A stretch of 64,000 bases of DNA, taken from positions 14,929 to 78,928 of the forward strand of contig CATMWH010000002.1 in the NCBI GenBank assembly GCA_950079155.1, written 5' to 3'. A model generated the notes under the pieces. The model saw nothing but the letters and a program-made list of their open reading frames with translations, ran no database searches and was not told where the DNA came from. Each line of letters opens with the position of its first letter. Position 1 is the first letter of the stretch. Below, in pieces: positions 9,733 to 54,950 of this stretch. The DNA is from an uncultured Christensenella sp. GTDB taxonomy: Bacteria; Bacillota; Clostridia; Christensenellales; UBA3700. The position numbers were made by a program, and so were the translations under genes.

Positions 9733-9746
9733 CTAATTATCCCCCA

Positions 9747-12700
9747 TTAACCCATCTGATTGTCCAATACGTGGACTTTCATCGTGCAAGTTTGAGCAAT
9801 ATCTCCGCTACATATCGTCACTTCGATATTCATTGCGCAATCCTCAACTTGATCCGACTTAATGACTGTATTAGTCCTCAAATCGGTGATGACCATATTA
9901 CCGTCAGCGCCATTGCTCCATCTGAGCGTAGCGGACTTAGAGTCGCTGTACTGTATCTTTGTAAGATCAAGCGTAACTTCATAGACGCCCGACGTACCGT
10001 CATCGAATATGACCGTCTTGGTCAGCGTAAGTCTTTGAGTCAGCTTCGCCGTTTCGCTCAAGTTAGTGCCGCCAACCATAATGTACTGAACGCCGCCGGA
10101 AATAGTCAAAGCCTTCTTTGCTCTCACTTCGACGTCGACTTTGTACTCTTTGTTGAAAGCAGCGTCGGCAGCCTGTACTATCGTCTTTACGGTATAGGTA
10201 TCCGCAACGCTGTAATTGATATCCCTCAAATCCCATACGATTGGTACGTTGAAGTATTCCCATACCTCTGCGGATATGACCGTAATAGAATCTATATTGT
10301 TTGCAATGAAGTCTTTGATATAATCTATATCTGTCTCCATAATGCTTTCTTGTCTGCCGTCCAACTCATAGGTAAGCACGTATTTCAAGAAAGTCTTGTA
10401 ATCTTCGGATATGCTACCCGAGAATTGCGTTCTGCCCACTACGGCAAAGGTCTCGAGGTCAAACGTACCCACGCATTGATACAAGTTGATGTTGTCATTG
10501 AAGACATTGTATACTCTGTTGCCTCTCTCGTCAATGGTATATACGTACGGATCCATAGACATCTGAGTCAAATCAGACTTAAGATTGCTTCTGTCGATAA
10601 TCTCCACATCAATGTCAAACGAATATTCGTCGTTGAGTCTAAGCCTAGCCTTGAGGTTCTTCTTGCCCTTCAATGTAATAGCAAAGTTTCTCTCCCAATG
10701 CGCGTCCGACACTTCAAGTACAGAAGTCTTGCCGCTCATATATTTCACCGTCACCTTCTCCGGGAATGGATTCTGTCCGTAATAGAGCACCTGTATTGGA
10801 TCGACATAATACGTTCCGCCGACAAGCGCGCTTCCGTCAACCATTATACCGCTAGGTATACGGTCTTCAACCTGCACGTTGACGAATTTCTCTTGCAAAA
10901 GCGTACCGTTGATAGCGCTGTAATCGACTATTTGCCCCGTGCTGTTATATGCCGTAGGATCAAAACCAATTACTACTTCAAACTGTATGAACTGAGCCGG
11001 ACTGTTTGGATTGATATTGAAGTTTTCAAGTCCTTTCCAAGCAATCGGCATATAGTAAACCGCGCCGTTGGTGAACTGAACGTATGCGTAATCCGGGAAG
11101 TTTGCGGTTCCCTTACCGTTGATGAGATATTGGAAAGGATCTATGAAGAGCGCAGATTGCGTCAACGCTTCGTCAAAGTATATTGCTTCCACCTCATTTC
11201 TCATTACGGCAACTTCCGTCTTCTTGAAAGTCCAAGTAAACGAACTGTTGGGATACGCGCTGTTGTCCAAAGCCACGTCGACCTTGTTGACTGTATCGTT
11301 GTTGTTGTTCCAATCAAATATTACGTTGTCAAGGTTCTTCCATATCACGTTGACCTCTTCGTCATACTCGTCTCTGATGATTTTGGAATCGCCCTCTATA
11401 TCAGGATTGTAATTTGGATTAGCATATTCATCCAAGTAGTTTGCCACAACCGTGCTCGGGAAAGGATTTTCGTCGCTTTCGCCAATCATATACATATAGT
11501 ACTTATACGGATCTATATTGATTGTATTTATCGCGCCGTTGATTGTCAAAGAATATACGTTCTTAGATTTGACTACAAAGGACAGTTCCACCGTCTGCTG
11601 AGCGCTACCGTCGTATGCCGCAATACTCGTCGTGATGGTAAATATACCGCCGCTTACGTCCGAAGAATACTTTCCGTCTACATCTATAGGTCTGCTAAAG
11701 AGATTATGCGTTGCTTCCGTAGTATCCCATCCGTTGAGTATGTCAAGTCCCACTGCCTTTCCGTCCGGGTACTTAAAGAATAACGTTGACGGAGTAAAGT
11801 CTTCTATCTTAGACGTCTTTAGGTCAAATTCATAGAGATTGACGTTGACATTCGTACCTTCGGTACCGTCAATAATTATCTTAGTTACGGTACTGTCAAG
11901 ATAGTGTATCGTCATTGGCAACGTAGTTCCGTTCTTAAACGCAACAGTAGCCTCTACGTCGTGCGCCTTATAATCTTTTGGTCTCCAATTAGATACGGAC
12001 AAATATTCTGTATTTATCTTTCTTGACTTGCCGTCGTTTGTGTATATCGTCAAGAAGTCGGGCAACATATCGTCATAAGCGTGCATCTCGATGTCCTCAA
12101 CGTATTTAAGACCGCCGCCGTCGTCTCTTGACTCTACGTCAATCGTAAGCGTGCGAGTAATTCCGCCCGAGAATTTGGCAATGGCTTTAACTTTAAATTC
12201 GCCTGCGACGCTTAACTTAGCCTTGAGATTTTCTTCTCCCATAGCCTCCTCATAGCCGTTGGCGTTGACGATTTTGAACTCTACGGTTGACCTCATTATA
12301 GTGGTACCCTTCTGATAAATAGCCACCTTATTTTCAAAGTTTGTCTTAATCAGTTCTTTTACGCCGGCGTCAACCGAAGTGTAGATATAAGGCATAAATG
12401 TAATGTTAGTCGGAATATCTGCCCAAGTCACGATACCGTTATTTGTACCGTCGGCAGTGGATCCGCCCACACTGTTTGAGGAGTTGTAAATAAATATCTC
12501 CGTGAAGAAACCTTCCTTACCTCCGTCACTCGCATTTTGCCAAGAACCTCTTGCATCTTTTCCTTTGTCGTATGCAATCCCCTTATTTGGGTCATTGTCG
12601 ATATAAATATGCTCGCCGTTATCCTGTCCTCTGAAATGAATATTGGATATGGTTGCGTCGACGATATTAACTTCAAGCGTAGCGGTATTCCACACGGCAA

Positions 12701-15700
12701 AAGGCAATAATCCCGAAACAATATTTCTTATTTGAGAATAAACGCCGTTAAGCAGCACGTCTGTAAGCATCCAACTTACACCCGGTACAAAACCTGATAC
12801 GATGTCTTTTAACATATCGGTAAGGTTGGCTTGCAAATCGCCCCAAAGCGTATTACTCTTTCCGTTTGCGCCGTAAGTTTCTCTAGTCCAAGTTATCATA
12901 TCCAAATAACTCTTGCTGAACATATCAGGCGCCATTTCTTTAAGATTGATAAGAGATTCGTGTCCCGTGCCTTTAGCAAAGACGTAACCCATTATATCAT
13001 CCAACAATTTGTTGATAAGATATGGATTGAATTCAATCGTCACGTTGAACGTACCGTTGGCTCTCAAATTGAGCATAATACCCTTTTCTCCAAGCAACTT
13101 AATTACATCGAGATCTGCAAATACTTTGTTGATGCCGGTTGGCTCTTCTTCTTGCATCGCAACGTCGTCACTGAGGGCTGCGGTTTCTGCCGACTGATTA
13201 TTCAAGCCGTCGAGCGCGCCGTCTATGGTTGAGAACAAATCGTCGATTACCGGTCCGAGCATACCGAGCAAATCAAGATCTATGTATTGTTGTCCTACCG
13301 TATCACCTATATCTACGACGAACTCTACCAAGCCCGAACAAATAGCCAACATCAATTGTCCGGACGTCTTTCTATGGTCAAGTACTATATATACAAGCGG
13401 TTTTATGCTTGCGTCCGTTGACTTATTATCATTGTACATTGCCTTGTTGATATGAGCAAGAGTGACTACGAATGAGCCTTGCGCTGCTACCGGATTATTT
13501 TTGACGCCATTCAATCTCTTGCCGGAAGACGCAGTGACTTTTTCAATAATAATTCTCGTATACATCTTGTAGTCGTCAATAAATCCATATTTTGTTTGTC
13601 CGTGAAGATTGACTACGTCGTTGGTATAGTTGGCGAGATCAATTGTAAATCCTATATCAAGATTATTGAGCAACGTTCTTGCAAAATCTCTTCCGCTGGA
13701 TGCGTCCCAGTCCGGCACATCGTCGAAGTTGATAGGTATAGTTACCTCTTTGCCAAGCGACAAACTCAAAGACAGATCCATTGTGATATCTTCTACTGTA
13801 AATCCAAGTTCGATACTGTCGCCAAACAAGTCGAATACGCCGTCAAGTCCAATATTAAGTCCAAGATTGATGCCCACAAGTTCGTTGAGCATTCCGTTTA
13901 TGATCGAAGAAGTGAAGTCAATGACAATTGCCGTATTCTCCAAATGGATTGCTTGTGTCAAATACTTGATGAAATCTTTGACTTCCAATCCTTCGCCAAG
14001 CGTGGCAACACTGCCGTCCGCAGCAACTTCTTCGCCCAATGCAAGTTTGTCTGATTCTTCGGGTTTTGTTCCGACGGTAGGCAAACCGTTGTTTTTCAAC
14101 AAATCGTTGATTATATCGTTGAGATCGAGATCGCCTATGTTCTTTATAAGTCCGTCGATCATTCCGAATACCTTAGTCACGATATTTGAATTGACGATTT
14201 CTCCGCTGAACAATCCAAGCCCCGTAAGATCTACGATAATACTGTTACGATGGATATACAATCCCATAATGACTTTTTGCTCGTATCTCAATTCAAGCAT
14301 TATCTTACTGTTGGAGAATCTCGTCAAATCAAGATCCCAAGCCAAAGCAAGTTGAACGTGCGCGTCCCAATCGTCAAGATCAAGAGATATAGGCAATTCG
14401 AGTTTTTTACCTACGTTTGCCAAAATCGCGTTGATAAGACGCGTGAGATTCATCTCGTTGTCAAGAGTATGGAGGTCGATATCAAGTTGTACCGAAGCTT
14501 TACCCACAGTGCTGACTATTGCCTCAATAAGATCTGACTTATAATCAATAAATTCTTGCGCTTTTTGTTCTATCGGATACTTATGCTCTCCGAGATTACC
14601 TACTATCACGCGGTGATCGTCAGTTCCCGCCGAGAATACCAGTTTCATATCACTGCCGTAGTTATACTTCTTGGTCGTATAGTAGACAATGTTTTTGTCT
14701 ATATTTTCGCTGCTTGCAGGCTTATCTTTGATGTTTCTGTAAATCTTACCCTCTTCTTTTACGATTTGATTACCTTTGTCGTCAAAGTAGTATACGCACT
14801 CGCCGTTGCTGTCGAGTTTTGGTATAAATTCGCCGCTAAAGGAGAAGATAAATCCGTCGTTTCTTCCCAACTCAACCGACAAATCGACTTCCATAAGGCT
14901 GAGCGCCTCTGCCAAGGTGTTGCCCATATCGGTGTTGGTTGCACTGAGTACCGCAAGTATTGCGGCAAGCGAAATCGACGGTATGAACTTATCGGCATTG
15001 AATGCAAATATTATTGCCGCAGTCGGATTTACCTCTTGAGTTTGAGCGTACGTAGCAAGGCGCGAAGTTGAATTCTGCGTTTCGCCGGCTTGCGCTACAA
15101 CGCTTGACGTAAGACCAAGCAATTCCTTGAAATCAAGTTCAAACTTGAGATCTCCGCCCTGCACGTTAATTTGCTTTAGCAAATCGCCTATCACATTGTC
15201 GAGAAGCGTGTATATCAAATCCGTAAAGTTGAGCGAAAAACTCAATTTAGGCAATACTATACCTGCAATATTGAAGTTAGAAATATCTATATAAATATTA
15301 TTATTATATCCATATATACCGAGCAAGACTTGATCTTTTTCGATAATCTGATGGTCGCCCACCTTTATACCGCTCTCAGTCTTCATCTCCAAGACTATCA
15401 TAGATCTTGCAGTATCCGTTCTGTTGAGCGCAATTTGCAGATTGAGTGACGCGTCCAATATAAAGTCATTGTCGAATGTCCACAATATTTGAGACGATTC
15501 TACTTCCGACACTCCGAATCCTGCGATAAATGGCGCAAGATCATAAGTTCCTGCCGAGAAGTTAAGCGAAAAGCCGCTGCTAAATCTAATACCGCCCAGC
15601 AAATGCTCTATCACGCCGTTAAGCGACGATAGATAATCGGTATTTTCAATATCTACTTTGCTGTCTATATAATCTGCAAAATTCTCGTCTTTAAAGCCTA

Positions 15701-17660
15701 TTACAAACTGACCTATTCCCAGACGTATCGCAAACGCCGGATCAGTAATCGTAATGGTGCTGTCCTCAGGTCCAGCAACTTGAGACGTATTGTTGAGCAC
15801 AGTTTCTACCGTGACGCTGTCAAGTCCCACTTCGGATGTGTTGATAGACAATATTATATCGCCTATTTCGTCCGGCAAAGACACGTTTTTCAATTGCGGT
15901 ATAAGACCGCCGAGCACTTTGAAGAAATTATCGTTGACTACAACTTTGATACTGGTGTCGTCAGTATATATATTTGGTTCTACTGTCACGACGCCGTTTT
16001 CTTTCACGCCTCCAAGACCCAAGAGATTTGCCAACATATCTACAAAATTTCCAATACCTGCCGAGAGTTTATAACTACCGTCGTTTTCTTTAGCAAGCGC
16101 AACCACGCTTGCGCTGGTTGAAGACATCACTTTCTCTACTGCAGACATACTTGAAAGCGTCAAAGATCCGTTGTCATTTACTTGAATTTCGCTCTTGCGA
16201 AGTCCTGCAAAATCAAGACCGAATACGCCGTCAATAGCGTCGGTAATGATATCGACGAGTTTTGATACCAAATCGTCGAGTCCTGCGTCAAGTTTTATAT
16301 TCAATCCGTTGAGATATTGAGGCAACATATTATCCGTATTGAGATAAAAACTACCTTCTTTATAATAAATTCCCATTTGAGGCTTGAAGTTCTTATCCAC
16401 AAGCGTGCCGTCAGTATTGATTAGATACAACTCTATTGCGACTTTGTTGTTGTCTTGCGGCAACTTATCGTAATTGAGATCCAAGTCCAACTTAAATGAG
16501 AGTCTCACTCCAGTACCGCCATTGAGAAGCAACAAACCTTCGGGGATTCTTATGGTCGTGGATTCTCCAAGAAAACTGTTGATCATCTTGCCAAGGTCAA
16601 AATTCTTATTATGACCGCTTTCGTCTTTGACGGAATCCACTATCAAGTCGATGTCAAATTGCAAGTTTGTAAAACTAAATTCCGATATGGCTCTATCCGC
16701 CAAATTGCCGGGTAAACCTATATCAGTATCCGCCTCATCGCGTATATCTATAGTTGCGCTCAAATCAAAGGTGTTTTTGTTACCATTTAATTCGACTCCG
16801 CTGACACCGACATTTTTAAGATTGCTATCGCTGTCAAAATCTGCCTTTATATATAATGTTTCGTCGGGAATTAAATCTGCTAAGTAATTTACGAGAGGTT
16901 TGATATCTATAGGGATATCAAAGGGCAAGAATGGTAGAAAAGTAGTAACATTGCTCAAGAGACTTTTTAATCTCAACTCCATTGCAAGAGACTGAGAACC
17001 GTCTTCGCCGACTTTCACTTCGGGCACGCCGAATAAGACGTTAAACACAAGGTCTATCAGTCCCATATACTGCTCCAAAGAGCCCGTCAAGTCTGACACC
17101 ATTCCGCCTGCGCCTTCGATAATCTGGATTATGTAATTAAAGTCGAAATCCGACAGATAAATAAGTGGAGTTCCGTCCGCTCTGTCTATATAAATCTTGT
17201 CATTTACTATGTAAACTGCAAAAACCAACTGCCGTTGCGAGTCAGCCTCGCCTTTTTGCTGTTGATAAACGGCTAAACACAGTTCGTTGCGAACTTCACT
17301 GTAGAAATTGCCCTTTAAATTAATTGTCGTCACCTGATCTTCATTCTCAAATTTGACGTATACGTCAAGATTTAGAACCTGCTCCGGCACCTCCACCGAT
17401 TCGATGATCTTATTGAGCATCTCTTTGGAGGTATATTTCGGAATCTCCGGCGTATTACCTCCGGGATTGCCCGAAGGAGTCGGCGGTTTCCATATGTCGT
17501 CATTACTACCGGACGGCGTTTCGTTGGGGTCTCCGCTTGGCGTATGATTGCCACTAATTCCCCCATCCGGTTTAGGCTCGCACGCTACAAGCGTAGCAAG
17601 AAACACCGTAGCCAACACGGCTAACAGCAAAAGAACCGTAATCAACTTAGTCTTTTTCAT
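9747..17660 (-). CDS. Giant lipoprotein (2637 aa), putative adhesin or surface-layer component
   Basis: ORF track. Lipobox LATLVAC follows a hydrophobic signal, then a Pro/Gly/Ser-rich linker (PKPDGGISGNHTPSGDPNETPSG...). First gene of a three-gene giant-protein operon; the next gene starts 15 nt after its stop. Confidence 0.85.
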   Translation of the reverse strand: MKKTKLITVLLLLAVLATVFLATLVACEPKPDGGISGNHTPSGDPNETPSGSNDDIWKPPTPSGNPGGNTPEIPKYTSKEMLNKIIESVEVPEQVLNLDVYVKFENEDQVTTINLKGNFYSEVRNELCLAVYQQQKGEADSQRQLVFAVYIVNDKIYIDRADGTPLIYLSDFDFNYIIQIIEGAGGMVSDLTGSLEQYMGLIDLVFNVLFGVPEVKVGEDGSQSLAMELRLKSLLSNVTTFLPFLPFDIPIDIKPLVNYLADLIPDETLYIKADFDSDSNLKNVGVSGVELNGNKNTFDLSATIDIRDEADTDIGLPGNLADRAISEFSFTNLQFDIDLIVDSVKDESGHNKNFDLGKMINSFLGESTTIRIPEGLLLLNGGTGVRLSFKLDLDLNYDKLPQDNNKVAIELYLINTDGTLVDKNFKPQMGIYYKEGSFYLNTDNMLPQYLNGLNIKLDAGLDDLVSKLVDIITDAIDGVFGLDFAGLRKSEIQVNDNGSLTLSSMSAVEKVMSSTSASVVALAKENDGSYKLSAGIGNFVDMLANLLGLGGVKENGVVTVEPNIYTDDTSIKVVVNDNFFKVLGGLIPQLKNVSLPDEIGDIILSINTSEVGLDSVTVETVLNNTSQVAGPEDSTITITDPAFAIRLGIGQFVIGFKDENFADYIDSKVDIENTDYLSSLNGVIEHLLGGIRFSSGFSLNFSAGTYDLAPFIAGFGVSEVESSQILWTFDNDFILDASLNLQIALNRTDTARSMIVLEMKTESGIKVGDHQIIEKDQVLLGIYGYNNNIYIDISNFNIAGIVLPKLSFSLNFTDLIYTLLDNVIGDLLKQINVQGGDLKFELDFKELLGLTSSVVAQAGETQNSTSRLATYAQTQEVNPTAAIIFAFNADKFIPSISLAAILAVLSATNTDMGNTLAEALSLMEVDLSVELGRNDGFIFSFSGEFIPKLDSNGECVYYFDDKGNQIVKEEGKIYRNIKDKPASSENIDKNIVYYTTKKYNYGSDMKLVFSAGTDDHRVIVGNLGEHKYPIEQKAQEFIDYKSDLIEAIVSTVGKASVQLDIDLHTLDNEMNLTRLINAILANVGKKLELPISLDLDDWDAHVQLALAWDLDLTRFSNSKIMLELRYEQKVIMGLYIHRNSIIVDLTGLGLFSGEIVNSNIVTKVFGMIDGLIKNIGDLDLNDIINDLLKNNGLPTVGTKPEESDKLALGEEVAADGSVATLGEGLEVKDFIKYLTQAIHLENTAIVIDFTSSIINGMLNELVGINLGLNIGLDGVFDLFGDSIELGFTVEDITMDLSLSLSLGKEVTIPINFDDVPDWDASSGRDFARTLLNNLDIGFTIDLANYTNDVVNLHGQTKYGFIDDYKMYTRIIIEKVTASSGKRLNGVKNNPVAAQGSFVVTLAHINKAMYNDNKSTDASIKPLVYIVLDHRKTSGQLMLAICSGLVEFVVDIGDTVGQQYIDLDLLGMLGPVIDDLFSTIDGALDGLNNQSAETAALSDDVAMQEEEPTGINKVFADLDVIKLLGEKGIMLNLRANGTFNVTIEFNPYLINKLLDDIMGYVFAKGTGHESLINLKEMAPDMFSKSYLDMITWTRETYGANGKSNTLWGDLQANLTDMLKDIVSGFVPGVSWMLTDVLLNGVYSQIRNIVSGLLPFAVWNTATLEVNIVDATISNIHFRGQDNGEHIYIDNDPNKGIAYDKGKDARGSWQNASDGGKEGFFTEIFIYNSSNSVGGSTADGTNNGIVTWADIPTNITFMPYIYTSVDAGVKELIKTNFENKVAIYQKGTTIMRSTVEFKIVNANGYEEAMGEENLKAKLSVAGEFKVKAIAKFSGGITRTLTIDVESRDDGGGLKYVEDIEMHAYDDMLPDFLTIYTNDGKSRKINTEYLSVSNWRPKDYKAHDVEATVAFKNGTTLPMTIHYLDSTVTKIIIDGTEGTNVNVNLYEFDLKTSKIEDFTPSTLFFKYPDGKAVGLDILNGWDTTEATHNLFSRPIDVDGKYSSDVSGGIFTITTSIAAYDGSAQQTVELSFVVKSKNVYSLTINGAINTINIDPYKYYMYMIGESDENPFPSTVVANYLDEYANPNYNPDIEGDSKIIRDEYDEEVNVIWKNLDNVIFDWNNNNDTVNKVDVALDNSAYPNSSFTWTFKKTEVAVMRNEVEAIYFDEALTQSALFIDPFQYLINGKGTANFPDYAYVQFTNGAVYYMPIAWKGLENFNINPNSPAQFIQFEVVIGFDPTAYNSTGQIVDYSAINGTLLQEKFVNVQVEDRIPSGIMVDGSALVGGTYYVDPIQVLYYGQNPFPEKVTVKYMSGKTSVLEVSDAHWERNFAITLKGKKNLKARLRLNDEYSFDIDVEIIDRSNLKSDLTQMSMDPYVYTIDERGNRVYNVFNDNINLYQCVGTFDLETFAVVGRTQFSGSISEDYKTFLKYVLTYELDGRQESIMETDIDYIKDFIANNIDSITVISAEVWEYFNVPIVWDLRDINYSVADTYTVKTIVQAADAAFNKEYKVDVEVRAKKALTISGGVQYIMVGGTNLSETAKLTQRLTLTKTVIFDDGTSGVYEVTLDLTKIQYSDSKSATLRWSNGADGNMVITDLRTNTVIKSDQVEDCAMNIEVTICSGDIAQTCTMKVHVLDNQMG

Positions 17661-26528: not shown

Positions 26529-28013
26529 TTACTCAACATCGTCAGGTGTTATATCTTCGCCGGTCGAGTCTTCCAATCCTTGAACGGGCAAGCCCTGAGG
26601 CTCGGCATTAGCCTCGTCGTTGACTTGACTGTTTTCTATCAAAACAACTTCTTGCGCATCTTCTTCGGCTGCTTTCTTTTTGAGTTTCATTGCGCCCTTT
26701 TTGCTTGTCACGACCATTGCCACTATAACAGCAATTATCAATACCATCAATTCTACTATCAAGCCCACTCTCAATGTTATAGGCGAATTTGTCGATTGAG
26801 TCGGCACCGCCGTCATTCTAACAATCGAACTTACGTTGTAGCCGCTGTTATATTCATCAATCATATTTTTGTAAGCAACAATGAGTGAATTATACTCATT
26901 GATAGCCTCGAGTTCGAGAGTGTTCGCAGTACTTATAAGCGCGGCTTTTTGCGCTTCGGTCTTCCCCTCAAAGTCTTGAGTATTGAAATAGGTCTTACGA
27001 GTCTCCCAAGCATTTTTTTCATTCTGGGCAAGCGTCTTGTTACTTACTGCTATGCTTATTGCCTCAGTAACCGCCTTTGTATCTGATGGGTTGACTATTA
27101 TGGTACCGGAGTTTGGCAAATTGACATCTTTATTTTGCATTATCAAGTCCAACACTTCGTTGAACGTTTTTATCTCTTGTTCATAGATTGCAATCTTATC
27201 GCTAGCCTCTTTTAATTTCAACTCTACGTATTGAGTCTCGCCGTGCGCATTTATTCCGTTAAACAGTATGAAATTGAGATAGTTTTCCAATTTTTGCGAT
27301 GCCATTTGAATACGAGTATTTAAAGAAGCAAAGGACATATCTTGACTGGTCGACACAAAAGCAGGCGCTTTCTCTGACCAAGTCTTACTTTCTTCAGAGA
27401 ATGCATTGAGATATCCTCGTATTGTATCGTATTTTTGGAAAGCGTTATAACTGTCCAAAACAGTCAAGTTTCCCAACGACGTACTGAAAGAAAATTTTCT
27501 CTTGAATGACTCAATATGATTAGTCGTAACTGCGCTCAAAATATTATTGTAATCGTTTCTTGATTTTAAAAATTTATCTATAGCAGCATCTTGCGACAAA
27601 ACAATTCTATAACTGTAATTTGCGCTCATCAATACTCCGGACTCGTTGACCGTCTCGTTGTCAACCGTCGAAATTACATTTAAATTTCTTATAATCAAAT
27701 TGACCAAAGCGTCTTTTTCTTCGTTGCTGTATTGCAATTTATCAAGAGCCGTCGATACGTTATTTGCAGACTTGACGTCCGATACCACGTCCTCTTGACC
27801 GCCCCAAGGGTTTTCTCCAAGTTCTGCACCCGAATAATAATAAGTAATTCTCGTTTCATATTGGCTTTGACTTACAAATATGTCGCATATACCCAAAATT
27901 CCGCCGCAAACAATGAGCGCAATAAAAGCGTATACTATTATTCTCACTCCGCTCTTTTTAATTTGTTGCCAAATCTTTTTAAAAGTCAACTCGCTGTTGA
28001 TATTCTCTTCCAT
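26529..28013 (-). CDS. Polysaccharide co-polymerase (Wzz / chain-length determinant)-like protein
   Basis: Bitopic PCP-type topology: N-terminal TM (IIVYAFIALIVCGGILGI), long coiled/extracellular middle, C-terminal TM (LIVELMVLIIAVIVAMVV), then an acidic tail. Start at ATG 28013 (MEENIN) after GGAGGG. Adjacent to the O-antigen-ligase-like gene. Confidence 0.55.
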   Translation of the reverse strand: MEENINSELTFKKIWQQIKKSGVRIIVYAFIALIVCGGILGICDIFVSQSQYETRITYYYSGAELGENPWGGQEDVVSDVKSANNVSTALDKLQYSNEEKDALVNLIIRNLNVISTVDNETVNESGVLMSANYSYRIVLSQDAAIDKFLKSRNDYNNILSAVTTNHIESFKRKFSFSTSLGNLTVLDSYNAFQKYDTIRGYLNAFSEESKTWSEKAPAFVSTSQDMSFASLNTRIQMASQKLENYLNFILFNGINAHGETQYVELKLKEASDKIAIYEQEIKTFNEVLDLIMQNKDVNLPNSGTIIVNPSDTKAVTEAISIAVSNKTLAQNEKNAWETRKTYFNTQDFEGKTEAQKAALISTANTLELEAINEYNSLIVAYKNMIDEYNSGYNVSSIVRMTAVPTQSTNSPITLRVGLIVELMVLIIAVIVAMVVTSKKGAMKLKKKAAEEDAQEVVLIENSQVNDEANAEPQGLPVQGLEDSTGEDITPDDVE

Positions 28014-28260
28014 AGTCCCTCCGTAGGCTATAATATCAATAAAATTCAATAATAGTATAACACCGTCAACCCTAATTATGCAATCATAAATTGCGTAATG
28101 TTTTTGTATTTAGGAAAAATTTATACAAAATTTTACAAAATTTTCACTTATTTAGCCAAAATACCGTTCTCTACCTGCCTTTTGCCACTCCCAAATACTG
28201 TCTGCATTGACACACTATACCTTTATAATTTATTTTATCCATATTTAATCCATAAATTGC

Positions 28261-28289
28261 TTGCCAAAAACCGTTTTTTATGATAATAT
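28261..28289 (+). promoter_or_regulatory. Candidate sigma-70 type promoter of tRNA-Ser
   Basis: TTGCCA, 17 nt spacer, then TAATAT preceded by TGA (extended -10). It lies about 70 nt upstream of the tRNA 5' end. Confidence 0.4.
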
Positions 28290-28356
28290 TTCAGTTGTTC
28301 ACGCAAGTGACACCCAAAATCTTCCCATAGATTTTGTAAAACATAATAAATTTTAT

Positions 28357-28446
28357 AGAGAGTTGGCTGAGTGGTCGAAGGCGCACGATTGGAAATCGTG
28401 TGAACGGGAAACCGTTCCGAGGGTTCAAATCCCTCACTCTCTGCCA
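28357..28446 (+). tRNA. tRNA-Ser (anticodon GGA) with encoded CCA
   Basis: Folded by hand. Acceptor agagagt/actctct; anticodon stem cacga/tcgtg with loop ttGGAaa; long variable arm gaacgg-gaaa-ccgttc; T arm gaggg-ttcaaat-ccctc; discriminator g + cca. Confidence 0.9.
28436..28446 (+). repeat. 11-nt att core (actctctgcca) = tRNA-Ser 3' end; direct repeat of 54738-54748
   Basis: The identical 11-mer occurs at both positions. It is read in the same frame (tct ctg cca = SLP) at both sites. Confidence 0.7.
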
Positions 28447-28650
28447 CAGGTGAATAATACGAACCCACGGATAGATGAGTTCGTATTTTTCTTTTCAAGA
28501 GACTATTTTGGCGTATGTGTTAAGACCAAAATCGCTTCACCAGAACCACCCACCCCAACGTCTTGGCAAAATCAAATAAGAGATAGTTTAGGTTGCTTTA
28601 CAAAATAATTCAATATAGGCATATCGAGATAATTCGGTATGCCTATTTTT
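28447..28650 (+). repeat. tRNA-downstream module D1 (two terminator-like hairpins plus a conserved reading frame); homologous to D2 at 54749-54950
   Basis: Alignable by eye: tacgaac...gttcgta+T-run, tttgg(c/a)gt(a/g)tg, ttggcaaa.tcaa...tag(t)t(t/c)tagg(t/c)tg(c/t)ttt.caaaataa, then a second hairpin + T-run (ataggcata...tatgcctat tttttt versus gcgtatcg...cggtacgc tttttt). Confidence 0.7.
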
Positions 28651-28711: not shown

Positions 28712-28974
28712 CCTTACTTTTATTGCCTTTCGGGGTGGCTATCGTAGCACAATTCTCCCGCCTGTCAACCGCAAAAAAATATCGCTTAAGCAGTAAACTC
28801 TATTTCGTTACCAGATTATAAATTTGTTTTGCCTACATTTATGCAATATTTTTTTGTATGGCTTTCTACTCATTAAATTGTCGGTTGACAGTTGGCTTGA
28901 GATTTTTACGTTTGAAAATTCCTACCCGAATTGTGCTACGATGCCCCCTTGTCCGAAAGGCAATAAAATTAAGG
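28712..28974 (+). repeat. Hairpin A: 263-nt imperfect inverted repeat immediately upstream of the small-gene operon (ssDNA-promoter / single-strand-origin-like)
   Basis: Paired blocks: ccttacttttattgcctttcgg / ccgaaaggcaataaaattaagg; atcgtagcacaattc / gaattgtgctacgat; tgtcaaccg / cggttgaca; caaaaaaatatcgc / gcaatatttttttg. The 3' arm carries TTGACA (28885-28890). A homologous copy lies at 56155-56412, with compensatory changes. Confidence 0.75.
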
Positions 28975-28984
28975 AGTAAAAAAT

Positions 28985-29290
28985 ATGGAAAAAGTGAATG
29001 TTAGGTATTACGTAAAGAGATTGAACTCTCAAAGCACCGGTTATTCCGGAAGTGGTTATTTGTTGAATGGTGATTTGCATATCCCATCTTTCAAAGATGA
29101 AAACGAAGATTATTTAGTTTTGTATGACGCTACAAAGTATTGTAGAAAAGTCTTTGACAAAGAAAACGAATACAAAGGAAATATCACGGTTTATCAAGAC
29201 GACGTAACGGTCTACAACGAAGAACGAGATAGATACGAAACTATTGACTGTCTAGAAACGACTTATTACGTTTGGTACAAAATCATATAG
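28985..29290 (+). CDS. Hypothetical small protein (101 aa), first gene of the early operon
   Basis: ORF track. AAGGAG RBS 8 nt upstream. Tight spacing to the following genes. Confidence 0.6.
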   Translation: MEKVNVRYYVKRLNSQSTGYSGSGYLLNGDLHIPSFKDENEDYLVLYDATKYCRKVFDKENEYKGNITVYQDDVTVYNEERDRYETIDCLETTYYVWYKII

Positions 29291-34578: not shown

Positions 34579-36582
34579 CTAATCAATATCAATTAATACA
34601 TTATCTTGATTCTTAGCCGCTGCTTTAATTGACTCCGCTATGAACCTAAATTGCGGTTTACTATGTATCTCTATAATCCATTTATTGCTTTCCATATTAG
34701 GTTGAACTATAAATAACATATCACAATTTGTAAATTCAAAAAGTGAATTTATATCAATTCCATCAGACTTTAAAAATGCACCAGCCGAAATAAATGAAAT
34801 ATGAGAAAGATCGCATACTGAATCCGCTATTATCCAATCTGCATTTACTGTTTCTTTTACCACACTTGGCTTATAGGTAAATAAATGTTCCAAGTAATGC
34901 TTTAAAGCATCTCCAATATTATTCTCTAAATCATTTACGCGTTCTTTGGATTCAATAATTAATAATAATGGATTATCCGTAATATCAAATAATTCTATAA
35001 TATGATCAGGCCGTTTTCCATTTGGACTAACACGAGGCAGTGATAACCAACGATATTCTTTCCCTTCCAATAGTACAGAAAGACCACTCCAATCTCCGCC
35101 AGGTGGATTGCACAAGCCTTCAAAACTATGTTCTTCCATTAAATATTTAAAAATATAATGCATTATAGCGTCAACATCGTTTTCTTGATAACGCTTTGGC
35201 ACATTTGATACAATATCAATAGTTGTATCTTGACTGTTATTCAAGACATTCTGTTTAAAATCAGTGTTATATATCGTCAATTCAATACTTTCATCTGAAT
35301 CCACACATGGAGCATCTACTATAATTAAATCGCTAATACCTATTATCGATCTCCACAAACCATTATCATAGAACAATGATTTATAATTTGTTTGCAATTT
35401 GTTTGCATTTGTTTTAACAATTGGTCCAAAAAGAAATGTTAAGACTTTAACGTCCTCATTTAACAGCATTGTAGCAAAGGGCAAGGCACCTCTGTCTGGT
35501 CGATTATCATCCCCTCGTGGTTTAAACCCCTTTAATATACAAACAAGTAAATCTTCATTTGCCAATAACAAATTACATACTTTTTCGTCAGTAATACTAT
35601 ATAATGCTATTACCTCATTAGCAAAAGCCTGCTTATTTTCAGAAGGTATTAATCCAAAAGGCAAATCGTTTGACGCAATACCAACAGCATATTTAGAACA
35701 AATATCTCGAAATGCCTCTGCATGTCCGAATAACGACTTCCCTGCTATTTTCTTTTTAAACCCTAATTTCTTTTGTTTACTGTAATCAATTATATCTATA
35801 TTTTCATCATATAACTTGTCCCAATCCGAATCCAAGAAAGCCCCTTTTGCATTTGACGCTAAAAAATTAACCATTTTCTTATTCTTTTCTAGCAATAATC
35901 TTTCAATTTGAATTGTATTTTGATGCATCATTCTACCCAATAAAAACTCAGCTATTTGTTGTTCGCCAAATAGATCTCTTGGAAAATCTTTCAGTGAATC
36001 ATCAAATTCCGGTTGAAATTCCTCTGCTTTGATATAGGCTTGTGTAACTAAATTTTGCGTATGTTTAGAATGAGTTATATAACTGAAAGCAACCGCCGGA
36101 TTTGGAAATCGTAATGCTTTTCTACTACGGCTTAATGTATCTAATTCATATTTAACAAAATCTAAAATGTAAATGTAAGGACAATTAGTGCGCCCAACTG
36201 AATAAGCCCTACCACTTCTTTGCCAAGCCTGATTACCAGCCTGTAATGCACTACAAAACTCAATAGCCGCAACTATATTTTCTTTGTTTTGACTTAATTC
36301 AGTAAGTATTATATCTGGTGCTTCATCAAGAAAACATCCTTCTGTTTTTAACAATTCTAAAATATTAGTATCCCACCTATCATTATGGCTTTTATTAAAA
36401 CCTGGAAAATACTCTAATTTAAATTCAGATTCAATTGGTGCGGTAGCATGTATTTTTACGTAAGGACATGCTAATGACGCAAACCCTCTTTCAATAAAAA
36501 TAGGTTTACAATACTTTATCAACAAATCTGCTATGCGTTCACATTCAACTATATTATCGCCATGTAATCTAAAAATTTTCAT
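34579..36582 (-). CDS. Putative restriction endonuclease with two PD-(D/E)xK-like regions (type IIS-like partner of two methyltransferases)
   Basis: C-terminal GKRPDHIIELF...LLLIIESKER is a canonical PD...ExK. The N-terminal EAPDIILTEL...VAAIEFCSA is a degenerate PD...E motif. Last gene of the four-gene operon, 7 nt after the Dam-like MTase. Confidence 0.55.
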   Translation of the reverse strand: MKIFRLHGDNIVECERIADLLIKYCKPIFIERGFASLACPYVKIHATAPIESEFKLEYFPGFNKSHNDRWDTNILELLKTEGCFLDEAPDIILTELSQNKENIVAAIEFCSALQAGNQAWQRSGRAYSVGRTNCPYIYILDFVKYELDTLSRSRKALRFPNPAVAFSYITHSKHTQNLVTQAYIKAEEFQPEFDDSLKDFPRDLFGEQQIAEFLLGRMMHQNTIQIERLLLEKNKKMVNFLASNAKGAFLDSDWDKLYDENIDIIDYSKQKKLGFKKKIAGKSLFGHAEAFRDICSKYAVGIASNDLPFGLIPSENKQAFANEVIALYSITDEKVCNLLLANEDLLVCILKGFKPRGDDNRPDRGALPFATMLLNEDVKVLTFLFGPIVKTNANKLQTNYKSLFYDNGLWRSIIGISDLIIVDAPCVDSDESIELTIYNTDFKQNVLNNSQDTTIDIVSNVPKRYQENDVDAIMHYIFKYLMEEHSFEGLCNPPGGDWSGLSVLLEGKEYRWLSLPRVSPNGKRPDHIIELFDITDNPLLLIIESKERVNDLENNIGDALKHYLEHLFTYKPSVVKETVNADWIIADSVCDLSHISFISAGAFLKSDGIDINSLFEFTNCDMLFIVQPNMESNKWIIEIHSKPQFRFIAESIKAAAKNQDNVLIDID

Positions 36583-36589
36583 ATACTCC

Positions 36590-37393
36590 CTACCAATTTA
36601 GATACAATGTCTCAAATACGTCTTCTGAAACATTATCAATTACTTTTCTAAAAGTGGATTTTCCTGATTTAATAATTTCTTTCCTCACATATAAATCTTG
36701 CGGCATATCAACACTATATGAGTTTGCGCCACGTTGTCCATCAAACGACAATGCATATTTAACATTTCTGGCATTTAATTCACGCAAATAGTTGAAAAAA
36801 TCAAGATAATCAATTTTCCCATAATATCTTCCTTTCGTATTATAATATGGTGGATCAAGATATATAAAGTCTCCCTCTTGTGCTGTTAAAGTTGATTCTC
36901 TATAATCTTTACAAACAAATTCCACATTCTGGATTCTATTATGCCAATCAAAAATAATTTTGCATAACCTTTCTGGTTCAATTCCTTTACGTGTATAATG
37001 CAATGAATTATTAAATTCACCATTTGAATTAAACCGAATCAATCCATTCACACAAGTTCTCGTTAAAAACAAAAAATCTAGTGGATTACCATCTATATTA
37101 AATCGTTCTCTTGCCTGATAATAAATCGTATAATCGGATTGTAATTCCTTCCAGCATTTCTTATAATACTCTGACAATAACAATGGATCTGTTTTAATCA
37201 AATTCCATAAATCAATTAAAGGTTTACAAATATCTCCACATATTGCCCTCTCAGGAGAAATAGCATACAACACAGACCCTCCTCCTATAAATGGTTCAAA
37301 ATAATTGTTAAAAGTTGGGGCCAAGTTAGCGATAAAATTTGCTTGACTGCTCTTACTTCCACTCCATTTTATAACAGGTTTAATCTTCATCAT
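36590..37393 (-). CDS. Dam-like (alpha-class, D12) N6-adenine DNA methyltransferase
   Basis: IKWSGSKSSQ (KWaGgK), FEPFIGGGSV (motif I), IYLDPPYYN (motif IV). Start set at the ATG-ATG pair 37393/37390, overlapping the upstream stop. Confidence 0.85.
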   Translation of the reverse strand: MMKIKPVIKWSGSKSSQANFIANLAPTFNNYFEPFIGGGSVLYAISPERAICGDICKPLIDLWNLIKTDPLLLSEYYKKCWKELQSDYTIYYQARERFNIDGNPLDFLFLTRTCVNGLIRFNSNGEFNNSLHYTRKGIEPERLCKIIFDWHNRIQNVEFVCKDYRESTLTAQEGDFIYLDPPYYNTKGRYYGKIDYLDFFNYLRELNARNVKYALSFDGQRGANSYSVDMPQDLYVRKEIIKSGKSTFRKVIDNVSEDVFETLYLNW

Positions 37394-38258
37394 TATCATC
37401 ACTTCCAAATATATCAAGTTTTAATTGCTCAATGTTTTCTTTTTCAATTGTTGCTTGCAATCTATCGACTGATGCTGCACAATAAGTACTATCTATTTCG
37501 AATCCTATATAATGCAAACCATTTTCTTTTGCTGCAACACACTCACTACCACTGCCACTAAAAGGGCACAACATTATTTGTCCTTTTTGAGCGGTTAATT
37601 TTATGATTCTATCTAAAATGCGCAATGGCTTTTGTGTCGGGTGTTCACACCAACCTAATTCAGATTTATTTTTGTTATTAGGAATATCCCATACTGTCCG
37701 CATTTGCTTACCTGGACTTTTCAGTTGATCCCCATCAAATGAACCATTTTTGCTAAACTCATAGTTAAAGTAATATTTTCGTTGTTTACCTCCTGAATGC
37801 ATCCACAAAATTGTTTCATGGCTTGCTGTTAAACGTCGCCCAGATAAATTTGGAAACGCGTTCCTTTTATACCAAGTAACTTCATTTATTATCTCAATCT
37901 CCAATAACTGACATATAACATTGATGATTCCTATGTTATGATAAGTTCCAAAAACCCACATAGAACCGGTCGGTTGTAAAATACGTTTTGCCTCAGAAAG
38001 CCATGCGCACGAGAATGTCCAATAATCATTTAAAGATAAATTGTCCCAATCTTCCATTACTTTATTCCAATTTCCACCCATTCCACTTAATCTGACACTA
38101 TTGTCCCATTGCAAAGAATTACCTTTTGACAAATTATATGGCGGATCAGCAATAATTAAGTCAATGGAATTGTCAGGAATATCTTTCATCCCTGAGATGC
38201 AATCCAAATTCAAAATTTTATCTAAATATTTATCTATGCTAGAGTAATCCTTTGACAT
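37380..38258 (-). CDS. Beta-class N6-adenine/N4-cytosine DNA methyltransferase
   Basis: DLIIADPPYNL (motif IV) precedes CPFSGSGSECVAA (motif I), which is the beta-class order. Start at ATG 38258 (MSKDYSS), 1 nt after the stop of the HEPN gene. Confidence 0.85.
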   Translation of the reverse strand: MSKDYSSIDKYLDKILNLDCISGMKDIPDNSIDLIIADPPYNLSKGNSLQWDNSVRLSGMGGNWNKVMEDWDNLSLNDYWTFSCAWLSEAKRILQPTGSMWVFGTYHNIGIINVICQLLEIEIINEVTWYKRNAFPNLSGRRLTASHETILWMHSGGKQRKYYFNYEFSKNGSFDGDQLKSPGKQMRTVWDIPNNKNKSELGWCEHPTQKPLRILDRIIKLTAQKGQIMLCPFSGSGSECVAAKENGLHYIGFEIDSTYCAASVDRLQATIEKENIEQLKLDIFGSDDNDED

Positions 38259-38259
38259 A

Positions 38260-46801: not shown

Positions 46802-48213
46802 CCACCGCCTTTGCTATCATTTATCTTTTGGAATAGCGTACCGATTGCCTTGAATGGTAAACGTATCAACAGCCCTACGCCTTTAAACATATATACAAAG
46901 CCTTTGCCTATAATCTTAAATACCCATACCAATGCTTGACCTAGCACCGGGCAAAAGATTGAAAGTATAGGCATTAGTACTACCAAGACGATTACTACGG
47001 CTATCAATATTAAAGCCCACTCAGGTATATTAGTAAGTCGGCTCAACCACTCCAATAAACTTGCAAATTCATTAGTATTGTTGTTGCCCGGCTTATTGTT
47101 GCCTGTTACCTTATCCGATACTGCACCCAAGTTATATACCTTGCCATCCGTTATAAACTTCAAACGTAAAACCGTTACTTGAGATATATCCGTCCAAAAC
47201 GTAACTGTGGAATAATCTCCAACAACCATAGTAATGTCTGTTTCCACAAACCGAAGTACCCATTGCTTGCCTTCTAGGTTGGCTTTCGTTTCATCTTTCA
47301 AATCTTCTTTGGATATAAACTCGGAAACGCTTTGTATTCTCTCCCATTCATACTTCTTGGAAAACCAACCGTCCGCTGCGTTTCCCCCCTTTTGTTTTCC
47401 ATTTAATTTCGCAAGTTCCTGACTTGTATCTTTATAGTTAGTTTCGCCTTTAAGTCCTATTCCTGTTGCTCGCGAAGCAGAACGACGAACATACGATACG
47501 TCGGCTTCCATAAGCGAATCTATCTTCTTATCCGTAGAAAATGCTACGTAATGCGAATGACACCAATTAGGAGATAACTTAAAACCGTTGCTGTATTCCA
47601 AATAATCCGCGTAAGGATCTATGATTTGTATTGTTTCTGTTCCTTTGCAACTGTAAGTTACTTCGCCGTTTGTAGTAGTTGCTATATACAGTTTACCTAT
47701 GGCAAACGCCACTTCGTTTTTCGTATTGTCGTTACCCGACCCTTTGTCTATACTTGAATCCCATTGACGGTAAATGCTTGTTATGTTGTAATATCGAGTA
47801 GCCTTCTCATCTACAGCAACGCCATTGACTTTGTATTTGCAAAATACTCCGTTGCAACTCAATAGCGAAAGTCCGTACAGATTTGTTCCGTCCGCGCTTT
47901 CCGAAAATGACATATTTATTTGCGTTGCTACAAGGTACTTTGTAAGTTGGCTTGGTTGATATGTATATACGAATAATTCTTTGGTCGTACTCTCTGCAAT
48001 TTGTATCATTTTTATTGAATAATCGCTTGCATTGCTTGGGTAATCGTCAACACTGAACTCTATATCTATCTGCAAATCTTCAAGAACTTCACTATACCCA
48101 GATACTGCGGCATAAGCGGGTGGCGTTTGCCACCCACCCAATATCATTACAACAAGCAAACATAACGCCAACACTATTGTTGATATACTCTTTATACTTT
48201 GCTTGAATACCAT
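46798..48213 (-). CDS. Secreted/membrane protein (471 aa): signal peptide plus C-terminal double TM; possible adsorption/assembly protein
   Basis: N-terminus ...LVVMILGGWQTPPAYAAVSG. C-terminus IPEWALILIAVVIVLVVLMPILSIFCPVLGQALVWVF... Confidence 0.6.
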   Translation of the reverse strand: MVFKQSIKSISTIVLALCLLVVMILGGWQTPPAYAAVSGYSEVLEDLQIDIEFSVDDYPSNASDYSIKMIQIAESTTKELFVYTYQPSQLTKYLVATQINMSFSESADGTNLYGLSLLSCNGVFCKYKVNGVAVDEKATRYYNITSIYRQWDSSIDKGSGNDNTKNEVAFAIGKLYIATTTNGEVTYSCKGTETIQIIDPYADYLEYSNGFKLSPNWCHSHYVAFSTDKKIDSLMEADVSYVRRSASRATGIGLKGETNYKDTSQELAKLNGKQKGGNAADGWFSKKYEWERIQSVSEFISKEDLKDETKANLEGKQWVLRFVETDITMVVGDYSTVTFWTDISQVTVLRLKFITDGKVYNLGAVSDKVTGNNKPGNNNTNEFASLLEWLSRLTNIPEWALILIAVVIVLVVLMPILSIFCPVLGQALVWVFKIIGKGFVYMFKGVGLLIRLPFKAIGTLFQKINDSKGGG

Positions 48214-48224
48214 ACTTCACCGCC

Positions 48225-49310
48225 TTATAGTATTACCGACGGCTGATCCATCTCAATGGAAGAAACGCGTGCTTGATTTATGTAACCTGTACATACAAAC
48301 TTCGACGAAATAGTATAGTTGGTATATTGTCCCGATATAGTTACGTCCACATTAAACATTCTTGCTTCCGTTATGTCCAAGAAGTACCCCGCTATCTCCG
48401 AAGTAGAAAGATTCTTAAATTGTATATCCGAATTTCTGCCTGTAATGTAAAATTGAGATACGGCGTGCGGATAATCAAAATACAACTCTTTATCGGGATT
48501 GCGATTGTACGTTCCCGTTGTAATCGTACTGCCTTTCAACTTCATATAAATGTACTGCCCTGTATCCGAAATATCGTTACTCAAACTTATTGTTGCCGTA
48601 AAATTGTCCGCCAATGTATACACCGAGCCCTTGTCGTATTGCAAATTCGTCACTCCGCCCGGACCTATGCCGTTAGGATTTATATTGAACTTAACTTCCG
48701 TAGTACCGCCCAAGTTGACTACCATATCTCCATATTTCAAACTTACGTTTTGCACCTTTTGAGAATAGTCCAATATACATTGAGCCGTAGCGTTTGAATT
48801 GTCTTTACTAACAACGCTTATTTTTATTTGCGAGCCAAACGCTTGCTTACATTCTACGTTTGCAGTCAACGCTCCATTTGACGTCGGCGTTACCGTTACG
48901 TAATCCGTTACTGATTTACCACTTGCAAAACCGCTACTACCGTCTACCCAATTTATTGACCATTCCATTTGCTTGTTAGTTGCAGTATCGGGATTTACGT
49001 TTATAGTAAGCAAACAAGCGCTGTCGGCTTGCGTACTTATTCCGTTCGCTTCATACGCTGCGCGGGGTAATACTGTGCTTACAACTTTCATACCGCTTTC
49101 TACAACTTCCGAAACCAGCATTCCGCCATTAAGATTATCATTTTCCGGTATACTAGTCGAGTTATCCGGCTTTGCTACGTTTTGCGAGTTGTACTTAAAC
49201 CACGTCTTGACATCCCAATTAGTAAATCCCAATGAGCCTATTGATATGACGAGCACAAGTACAATCGCGATAAATGCTGAAACTATGCTGAATATTGTTG
49301 TCTTTTTCAT
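48225..49310 (-). CDS. Membrane-anchored protein (361 aa), beta-rich ectodomain
   Basis: N-terminal TM TTIFSIVSAFIAIVLVLVISIGSLGF. ORF track. Confidence 0.6.
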   Translation of the reverse strand: MKKTTIFSIVSAFIAIVLVLVISIGSLGFTNWDVKTWFKYNSQNVAKPDNSTSIPENDNLNGGMLVSEVVESGMKVVSTVLPRAAYEANGISTQADSACLLTINVNPDTATNKQMEWSINWVDGSSGFASGKSVTDYVTVTPTSNGALTANVECKQAFGSQIKISVVSKDNSNATAQCILDYSQKVQNVSLKYGDMVVNLGGTTEVKFNINPNGIGPGGVTNLQYDKGSVYTLADNFTATISLSNDISDTGQYIYMKLKGSTITTGTYNRNPDKELYFDYPHAVSQFYITGRNSDIQFKNLSTSEIAGYFLDITEARMFNVDVTISGQYTNYTISSKFVCTGYINQARVSSIEMDQPSVIL

Positions 49311-54910: not shown

Positions 54911-54950
54911 AATATACGGCGTATCGAAAATATTCGGTACGCTTTTTTAT
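54749..54950 (+). repeat. tRNA-downstream module D2 (homolog of D1)
   Basis: See D1. Same order of two hairpin/T-run units and the same conserved reading frame, ending ...WQTQQRNSLGCFSK*. Confidence 0.7.

Follow-up and report, generated by a model that had tools for sequence, protein, structure and literature searches.

The stretch of DNA analysed here, referred to below as the window, comprises 64,000 nucleotides (nt) of contig CATMWH010000002.1 from an uncultured Christensenella sp. and harbours an integrative element, named E1, at the 3′ end of a tRNA-Ser(GGA) gene. We propose, with a probability of roughly 0.8, that E1 was inserted into this tRNA end by its own large serine recombinase (LSR), that the crossover in the attachment site of the element (attP) took place inside the LSR reading frame, and that the C-terminal tail of the enzyme was exchanged in the process. 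The coordinates of the features are collected in Table 1.

In the free circle, the gene would run from the recombinase body through an 11-nt core into D1, the first of two homologous stretches of tail-coding DNA, giving an enzyme of 560 amino acids (aa) with its own conserved 53-aa tail. Integration would part D1 from the body, and the D1 hairpin with its T run would take the place of the native tRNA terminator, while the integrated body would be fused to the sequence present downstream of the tRNA. A naive site would yield an unrelated or very short tail; at the present locus, the second stretch, D2, would stem from an older element, E0, so that the enzyme would regain a homologous but different tail.

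A tRNA end shared with the recombinase reading frame

The tRNA-Ser(GGA) is the sole tRNA detected in the window by ARAGORN and Rfam, and no RNA family besides tRNA was found by Rfam at the two junctions. Its last 11 nt, ACTCTCTGCCA, occur as exact copies at two places only in the window, 28436-28446 and 54738-54748, and 0.53 matches to this sequence would be expected there by chance if one mismatch were permitted. The second copy lies inside the LSR open reading frame (ORF; 53228-54910), in which it forms codons 504-507 (N504-S-L-P507), the CCA of the tRNA being read as Pro507. The tRNA gene is intact, and an 11-nt fragment of its 3′ end is repeated at the far end of E1, which is the displaced fragment characteristic of Islander-type islands.

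Downstream of TCT CTG CCA, each site stays in frame through 53 codons up to a stop, and the two tails end in ...WQNQIRDSLGCFTK and ...WQTQQRNSLGCFSK, each directly followed by the stop codon. D1 and D2 share 45% identity at the protein level and 67-71% at the DNA level over about 215 bp. Among all 53 codons, 14 are identical, 10 differ synonymously and 29 non-synonymously, and among the final 14 amino-acid codons eight differ, half of them synonymously (AGA/CGA, TTA/CTA, GGT/GGC, TGC/TGT). The original prediction, made from the sequence of the window, had identified the core both as the tRNA-Ser 3′ end and as the N-S-L-P codons of the recombinase, with which the tRNA call and the ORF agree. 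It had also announced about 54 homologous in-frame codons at both sites, of which the frame and the homology stand and the length is corrected to 53, and its count of eight differences in the last 15 codons, four being synonymous, holds when the stop is taken as the fifteenth.

Two further candidates near the junctions were set aside. The two sub-threshold Rfam matches to the trpB motif merely overlie terminators, and a minus-strand ORF overlapping the tRNA (28235-28498) was rejected, the minus frames having 1-6 stops in the homologs and a ratio of non-synonymous to synonymous changes per site (pN/pS) of 0.58-1.06.

The empty site and the exchange of tails

The empty site was searched for with the exact protein encoded on the left flank (window 26529-28013, minus strand), which led to contigs of near-identical strains. 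One public contig of 8,645 bp (L019) matches the window without a single mismatch once 28447-54748 is taken out; this makes E1 a discrete insertion of 26,302 bp, with the exchange falling within the 11-nt identity. The match leaves no target duplication beyond the 11-nt core, in keeping with conservative recombination. In L019, the tRNA runs directly into D2, which is thus present at the tRNA without E1, and a protein-level view of this state is provided by P0129, in which the tRNA-Ser of the window is joined to a P0121-type tail, E1 being absent. Crossover in the core had been predicted, together with comparison to an island-free strain as a means of checking it, and the direct junction of the tRNA with D2 in L019 bears this out. 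In addition, the GC content of E1 is 28-35%, compared with about 42% in the flanks.

The body and the tail of the recombinase are found in different combinations. In the 90%-identity cluster of the window recombinase, a single body, identical or with few residues changed, is followed after N-S-L-P by three tails, namely, D2 (P0001), a D2 variant (P0121, L012), and an unrelated tail of 21 aa (P0125, L011). The form carrying D2 and that of L012 differ by 1 nt in the body and by 31 of 159 nt in the tail. The same holds in a lineage 79% identical to the enzyme of E1, represented by two loci in different gene neighbourhoods (L101 and L103) whose bodies match at all 1521 nt, with 24 of 159 nt differing between their tails. 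Conversely, 264 nt differ between the bodies of L012 and L102 and 3 nt between their tails; in this pair, two different elements adjoin the same resident tail. Finally, P0004 and P0138 have the visible end of the body in common, but their tails are unrelated in the first case and D1-like in the second, so that a D1-like tail is found fused to a related LSR body. In three independent lineages, the switch point coincides exactly with the end of the CCA codon, and this decoupling of body and tail supports the predicted exchange of the recombinase C-terminal tail.

Attachment-site geometry and hairpins

When the body is joined to D1, the attP site can be reconstructed, with a predicted junction reading GGCTGAAAACTCTCTGCCA followed by CAGGTGAATAATACG. 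It contains an inverted repeat, GGTTCGT/ACGAACC, with odd spacing and centred on the core at about position 54743. The T-arm of the tRNA harbours GGTTCA 5 bp nearer to the core than the GGTTCG of attP (offsets -25 to -20 versus -30 to -25). In serine integrases such as phiC31, the half-site motif of the bacterial site, attB, is likewise shifted by 5 bp relative to that of attP (10.1101/2025.05.02.651858). The register of GGTTCA and GGTTCG is consistent with putative LSR attB and attP half-sites, although it does not constitute proof of them.

The hairpin within D1 was missed by a simple terminator scan owing to its large loop. Hairpins of this type are present in eight out of eight conserved tails, with energies of -10 to -18.5 kcal/mol and compensatory variants in L105 and L107, and absent from the unrelated L011 tail. 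In the integrated state, the hairpin is found 10-40 nt past the tRNA end, at the place occupied in naive sites by their own terminators, and it probably has a terminator-like role for the tRNA at attL, the left junction of E1. The original prediction that the same DNA supplies a terminator hairpin is in line with its retention in all eight tails. Since the hairpin arms lie in the tail, the codons T-N...F-V-F-F are also constrained at the DNA/RNA level. Another hairpin with a T run is located in the LSR frame some 30 nt before the core (codons E-M-Q-V-E-T-P-A-F), and is kept in seven homologs with altered stems (-9.5 to -18.9 kcal/mol, z of -2.8 to -4.2). Judging from these features, three signals seem to overlap in the tail DNA, namely, a selected protein segment, the right half-site of attP, and a terminator hairpin.

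The tail as a probable protein segment

With regard to selection, the LSR frame of the tail exhibits a pN/pS of 0.44 and zero stops in five ungapped tails, compared with 0.58-1.11 and 1-6 stops in every sequence for the five other frames. The value of 0.58 belongs to the antisense frame that has the wobble phase of the LSR, and the frames without it yield about 1.0-1.1. The pairwise ratio of non-synonymous to synonymous substitution rates (dN/dS) ranges from 0.13 to 0.67 in the tail, from 0.6 to 1.1 in the 40 codons before the core, and from 0.05 to 0.13 in the body. For D1 versus D2, the changed fraction amounts to 21.2/34.8 synonymous sites (Sd/S) against 38.8/124.2 non-synonymous sites (Nd/N; Fisher p = 0.003), and synonymous sites are the more changed in three comparisons of non-independent pairs (p = 0.003, 0.005 and 0.0004). 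The motifs of the tail persist at 31-47% identity. Among them, the distal W..Q.R[DN]..G.F.K is situated at a distance of 120-160 nt from the core, which exceeds the extent of a typical LSR attachment site, with changes that are mostly synonymous. The coding-type substitution pattern noticed in the original prediction is thus specific to the LSR frame, and the tail appears to be a protein segment under purifying selection.

Within the LSR, three domains were recognised: Resolvase (PF00239, E = 4e-27, residues 4-144), with a YARYSSDSQ motif bearing the serine nucleophile, Recombinase (PF07508, E = 3e-18), and Zn_ribbon_recom (PF13408, E = 1e-9). In the AlphaFold model, long helices (319-416) are placed between the zinc-ribbon strands 275-302 and 451-466. 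None of the recognised domains extends to residue 470, and residues 1-507 stay intact on integration.

The family-wide pattern was analysed in 123 homologs with at least 59% identity. The proline encoded by CCA, P507, is kept in 118 of them, preceded by P, A, L, S or Q. Beyond this residue, the tails are mutually unrelated in 69 homologs and of 5 aa or shorter in 24, so that 93 (about 75%) have an unrelated or very short tail; 23 keep the F..F...[DE][YC]FG[IV] motif, and seven the full tail ending with W..Q.R[DN]..G.F.K. The ending ...FF...EYF[GA]V is retained in a subclade that lacks the PP site, suggesting that this motif has an older origin within the protein. In species-representative genomes, at least 592 of 599 matched stretches are relatives (stretches and not species are counted, some retained loci sharing one genome assembly), with uncultured gut Clostridia and Christensenellales as hosts. 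The DNA at the point concerned always ends with NCCA, and a native-looking hairpin with a T run often comes directly after it.

A tail profile (A4), built from eight tails and run against 1.84 billion representative proteins, gave 58 matches. Of these, 18 are short ORFs that read through a tRNA (with the T-loop as VQIP/VRIP, then ..PP) into the tail, and correspond in their sequence to the predicted attL arrangement in other genomes. Two proteins, P0115 and P0157, have tails with two successive PP + N.TN units (...SSPPQANNANT...SGPPQVNNANT; tRNA...LSPPKATEF...IAPPQRNCTN), and these double units look like stacked remnants of repeated integration at one tRNA.

What the exchange might do is a matter for conjecture. 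By analogy with Mx8 IntP/IntX, discussed below, the change of tail might alter the activity, stability or directionality of the enzyme between the free and the integrated forms, a suggestion that we put forward tentatively and with less than even odds. Another conceivable situation, to which we would likewise not assign an even chance, is that the tail exchange is real but devoid of functional consequence. The enzyme would then work via residues 1 to about 470; the position of the attP core in the 3′ coding region would only serve to keep the attachment site with the integrase gene at the end of the element, and the tail would be kept for a reason unrelated to state switching. This would agree with the position of the recognised domains, with the predicted disorder of the linker 490-521, with the intact bodies of the roughly 75% of homologs lacking a conserved tail, which are often present on many contigs (57 for P0004), and with the presence or absence of E1, bearing the foreign tail D2, among otherwise identical strains. 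It accounts less well for the tail being more strongly constrained by purifying selection than the 40 codons that precede the core, and for the persistence of its motifs, which extends to the subclade lacking a CCA site in frame; a segment with these properties would probably not be neutral in the form of the enzyme that bears it.

The more extensive proposal, which we consider doubtful, would be that of a clade of LSRs from gut Clostridia/Christensenellales with a built-in isoform switch. The 53-aa tail would be present only in the free attP form and stripped or replaced at the CCA end of a tRNA, setting activity, stability or direction with no need for another regulator; protein code, attP half-site and replacement tRNA terminator would all be provided by one stretch of 160 nt, and tandem neighbours would donate tails.

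The likeness of D1 and D2 could also reside purely at the DNA/RNA level, as an attP arm, tRNA terminator and promoter, with an incidental reading frame. The region indeed contains the attP inverted repeat and the conserved hairpin with its T run, the T-N and F-V codons form the two hairpin arms, and the confidence of AlphaFold in the tail is low. Constraints of this kind would not be expected to lower pN/pS in the LSR frame only, nor to keep every tail free of in-frame stops while each other frame has them, and the distal motif with its mostly synonymous changes is remote from the core. We consequently deem this explanation improbable.

D2 and the stacked elements

D2 is best interpreted from its sequence context as the left end of E0, a degraded element related to E1, and not as native chromosome. 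In L001, where the third element of the window (E2, see below) is absent, homologs (72-75% nt identity) of the left-end module and genes of E1 come after D2 and the 320-aa ORF, in the same order, which substantiates the original prediction of D2 as element-like and part of a second related element. L102 has structural genes of tailed phages (Phage_tail_2, Phage_connect_1) behind a near-identical tail. L001 and L012 keep few left-end genes and lack the recombinase; the two loci become colinear at about 3.4-4.3 kb past the tail, reaching chromosomal genes (rubrerythrin, NUDIX). No second copy of the core and no tRNA fragment was found in L001/L012 up to these chromosomal genes, so E0 appears to be truncated at its right end. 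The sampled long-tail cases more generally look like integrations beside an earlier resident, because the left-end module also follows the tails of L101, L103 and L189.

That D2 and the DNA downstream of it could be native chromosome, D1 being captured host DNA, is suggested by the presence of D2 at the tRNA in the strain free of E1. We regard this as very improbable in view of the gene order in L001 and the phage genes in L102; furthermore, other genomes show unrelated sequence and native-looking terminators after CCA, and D-like tails are found behind many different tRNAs in different gene neighbourhoods. As for homologous recombination between D1 and D2 (or other repeats) in place of site-specific exchange at the core, the two stretches do resemble each other over some 215 bp, but 67-71% identity makes a poor substrate, at the empty site the sequence passes from tRNA into D2 without any D1-type base beyond the core, and unrelated lineages show the same breakpoint, at the CCA codon, so that this explanation is scarcely credible.

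Several points nevertheless weigh against insertion by the LSR with exchange of its tail. The exact protein made of body plus D1 is absent from a collection of 15 billion proteins, and the 28-nt attP junction from viral contigs and JGI metagenome contigs; we thus infer the excised form itself. The target of E1 (tRNA plus D2) has a P′-like right half and, in its sequence, would resemble attL. To our knowledge, attP and attL are not a substrate pair for canonical serine integrases, and this does not readily account for the formation of the tandem array. The AlphaFold confidence is low at LSR residues 490-560 (pLDDT below 60 in the tail), residues 490-521 are predicted to be disordered and only a weak beta-hairpin is modelled at 520-533, and in the domain scan no Pfam family covers the tail. 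Two terminator-like hairpins in frame could limit transcription or translation of the tail. Lastly, the dN/dS values derive from eight short related sequences with overlapping constraints at the DNA level. In a separate scan of viral contigs with the family alignment, relatives were found only at 47% identity or less, and no circular genome of a close relative was among them.

In other respects, one scaffold of a metagenome-assembled genome (L018, 1831-1946, minus strand as stored) has 116 nt of unrelated sequence with a terminator behind its tRNA-Ser, then an N gap, and D1 from 28471. The 116-nt sequence has no match in the other loci or in the window, and may represent either the naive attB arm of a co-assembled strain or a scaffolding artefact.

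Relation to known systems

The closest parallel is the Mx8 phage of Myxococcus, for which a review citing Tojo 1996 and Magrini 1999 describes an attP inside the integrase gene and a tRNA gene region as target (PMC6070905). On integration, a recombinant gene with a new 3′ end is formed and the C-terminus of the prophage integrase is changed, which the review reads as a regulation of activity (PMC6070905). To the extent of that account, E1 and Mx8 have in common a crossover inside the integrase frame and a C-terminus changed by integration. They differ in that Mx8 Int is a tyrosine recombinase, whereas the enzyme of E1 has serine recombinase domains only; moreover, E1 exchanges a family-conserved 53-aa tail that would also hold the attP half-site and a terminator hairpin. 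Going by the same review, the principle of an attP within the integrase gene is already established for the tyrosine integrase of Mx8, and what would be new here is the class of large serine recombinases.

In SSV-type 'suicidal' archaeal integrases, the site likewise lies in the integrase frame, a tRNA is targeted and the gene is rewritten (PMC7253208). These are tyrosine recombinases whose gene is split into two and inactivated, whereas E1 swaps only the last 53 of 560 codons, past all domains. The filamentous phages phiRSM of Ralstonia use a serine recombinase and the 3′ end of a tRNA-Ser with a 13-nt core (PMC3816273), and E1 also encodes a G2P-type Rep and a Zot-like protein. However, their enzyme is of the small resolvase/invertase type and their attP lies between two genes, unlike the 560-aa LSR of E1, with its core in frame, and its 26 kb consisting mostly of cargo. 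In the integration-dependent immunity of mycobacteriophages (PMC3694055) and in ORF13 of phiRSS0 (PMC3816273), attP is located in a phage gene, and integration changes the C-terminus and behaviour of the product. The rewritten gene is there a repressor or regulator and not a recombinase, and integration relies on tyrosine integrases or host XerCD.

Among serine integrases, phiC31, Bxb1, A118/LI and SPbeta share with E1 the domain order and the short identity between attP and attB, and would also share the quasi-palindromic attP and the 5-bp inward shift of attB that are putative in E1, but they have protein-coding or intergenic targets and an attP situated outside the gene of the integrase. 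A 2020 survey noted that tRNA genes were not known as targets of serine integrases (PMC7192596), and a survey of the attachment sites of 6,207 enzymes does not mention tRNA (PMC10083194). Islander-type islands integrate into tRNA 3′ ends with restoration of the gene, as E1 does, but are defined by a tyrosine integrase, whereas no tyrosine integrase domain was found among the Pfam-scanned ORFs of E1 (a part of its ORFs) or among the Pfam marks in matching loci. The only recombinase matches among the scanned ORFs of E1 are the serine recombinase and its truncated paralog. A limited literature search retrieved no report of an LSR with tRNA targeting or with attP inside the recombinase gene.

LSRs are the main enzymes under development for the insertion of large DNA, and the control of their direction is an active question. 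To these enzymes, the present clade would add targeting of tRNA 3′ ends, an attP embedded in its own coding sequence, and a C-terminus that depends on the free or integrated state. Should the tail affect activity, it would constitute a compact, self-contained signal telling the enzyme its state. On the proposed course of events, recombinases sampled from integrated copies carry the wrong C-terminus, as would be the case for about three quarters of the homologs seen, and surveys discarding candidates whose attachment site overlaps a gene would miss the clade. The locus further points to repeated use of one tRNA site, with stacked remnants read by later arrivals as part of their own gene.

Features, neighbouring genes and cargo

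Table 1. Positions of the tRNA, recombinase, attachment-site and element features in the window
Feature	Position	Strand	Remarks
tRNA-Ser(GGA), intact; integration target (attB left arm and core)	28357-28446	+	ARAGORN; Rfam tRNA, 56.3 bits
T-arm GGTTCA	28422-28427	+	5 bp nearer to the core than GGTTCG of attP
Core (11 nt) at attL	28436-28446	+	3′ strand of the acceptor, discriminator G, CCA
E1, integrative element with low-GC cargo	28447-54748		26,302 bp; exact empty site in L019; GC profile
D1, 53 codons and stop in frame with CCA	28447-28608	+	P′ arm of E1; predicted C-terminal tail of the excised form
Hairpin ATACGAAC...GTTCGTAT and T run within D1	about 28456-28492	+	-11.3 kcal/mol
ACGAACC, right inverted repeat of attP	28459-28465	+	5′ arm of the D1 hairpin
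Intrinsic terminator after the D1 stop codon	28615-28646	+	
Conserved non-coding left-end module of E1	28725-28995		Recurs after D2 and after the tails of L101, L103 and L189
Resolvase catalytic-domain paralog, 108 aa, frameshifted	52824-53150	+	No catalytic serine (YARVRGVD versus YARYSSDSQ); just upstream of the LSR
LSR, 560 aa	53228-54910	+	Body, codons 1-507; tail, 508-560, from D2
12-bp hairpin and T run in the LSR frame	54680-54707	+	
GGTTCGT, left inverted repeat of reconstructed attP	54719-54725	+	Codons G-S of the conserved GS.K motif
Core (11 nt) at attR, the right junction	54738-54748	+	Codons (N)-S-L-P507 of the LSR
D2, resident tail, 53 codons and stop	54749-54910	+	Putative P′ arm of E0, now read as the LSR C-terminus
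E0 left end, degraded related element	54749-56461		
Intrinsic terminator after the D2 stop codon	54918-54943	+	
Unannotated 320-aa ORF in E0	55024-55986	-	
E0 copy of the left-end module	56133-56435		
E2, third element	56462-64000		Inserted at 56461/56462 in the first gene of E0; runs off the window end
DUF4368-type LSR of E2	56489-58120	-	

The serine-less paralog upstream of the LSR is intact in L012 and L011 (133-134 aa), where it abuts the recombinase start, and its frameshift in the window corresponds to a run of seven A versus six in L012. This protein may be a regulatory partner or directionality factor.

Within the left-end module, positions 28725-28789 of E1 and 56165-56229 of E0 are 88% identical, and a promoter-like TTGACA-16-TACGAT with an extended -10 is present on the minus strand, pointing back toward the tail. 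In E0, direct repeats of about 42 bp (54944-54985 and 56133-56174, 81% identical) flank a 1.19-kb segment with the 320-aa ORF. E1 has no such segment at the matching place, and L101 has a hydrolase gene there; the repeat-flanked segment therefore looks like a cargo slot.

The genes of E1 include a G2P-type rolling-circle Rep (REP_ORF2-G2P, 41.5 bits, above cutoff), a Zot-like ATPase (Pfam Zot, 18.4 bits for a cutoff of 20.3; PHROG 197 match, 4e-12), two DNA methyltransferases, a 1,213-aa Metallophos-HD protein, and PcfJ and MutS_I-domain proteins. Rep and the Zot-like ATPase are encoded beside several unannotated ORFs at 44429-49310 (minus strand), in an arrangement resembling an inovirus core, and no inovirus coat protein was identified in E1. 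In CTXphi, tandem arrays matter for replication, and this could apply here if E1 has an inovirus core. The neighbouring cargo at 34579-43994 (minus strand, 27-33% GC), with an unannotated 667-aa protein, D12 and N6_N4 methyltransferases, unknown proteins of 414 aa and 235 aa, and the Metallophos and HD protein, is probably a restriction or defence cluster.

E2 carries, besides its LSR, a G2P-type Rep (58572-59510), a UvrD-like helicase (60495-62237), and an OLD/AAA_15 protein starting at 62246. The latter two form a Gabija-like pair, after which a type ISP restriction enzyme is encoded in L002. In the chromosomal flank, two very large adjoining ORFs of 1,900 aa and 2,637 aa occupy positions 4030-17660 on the minus strand.

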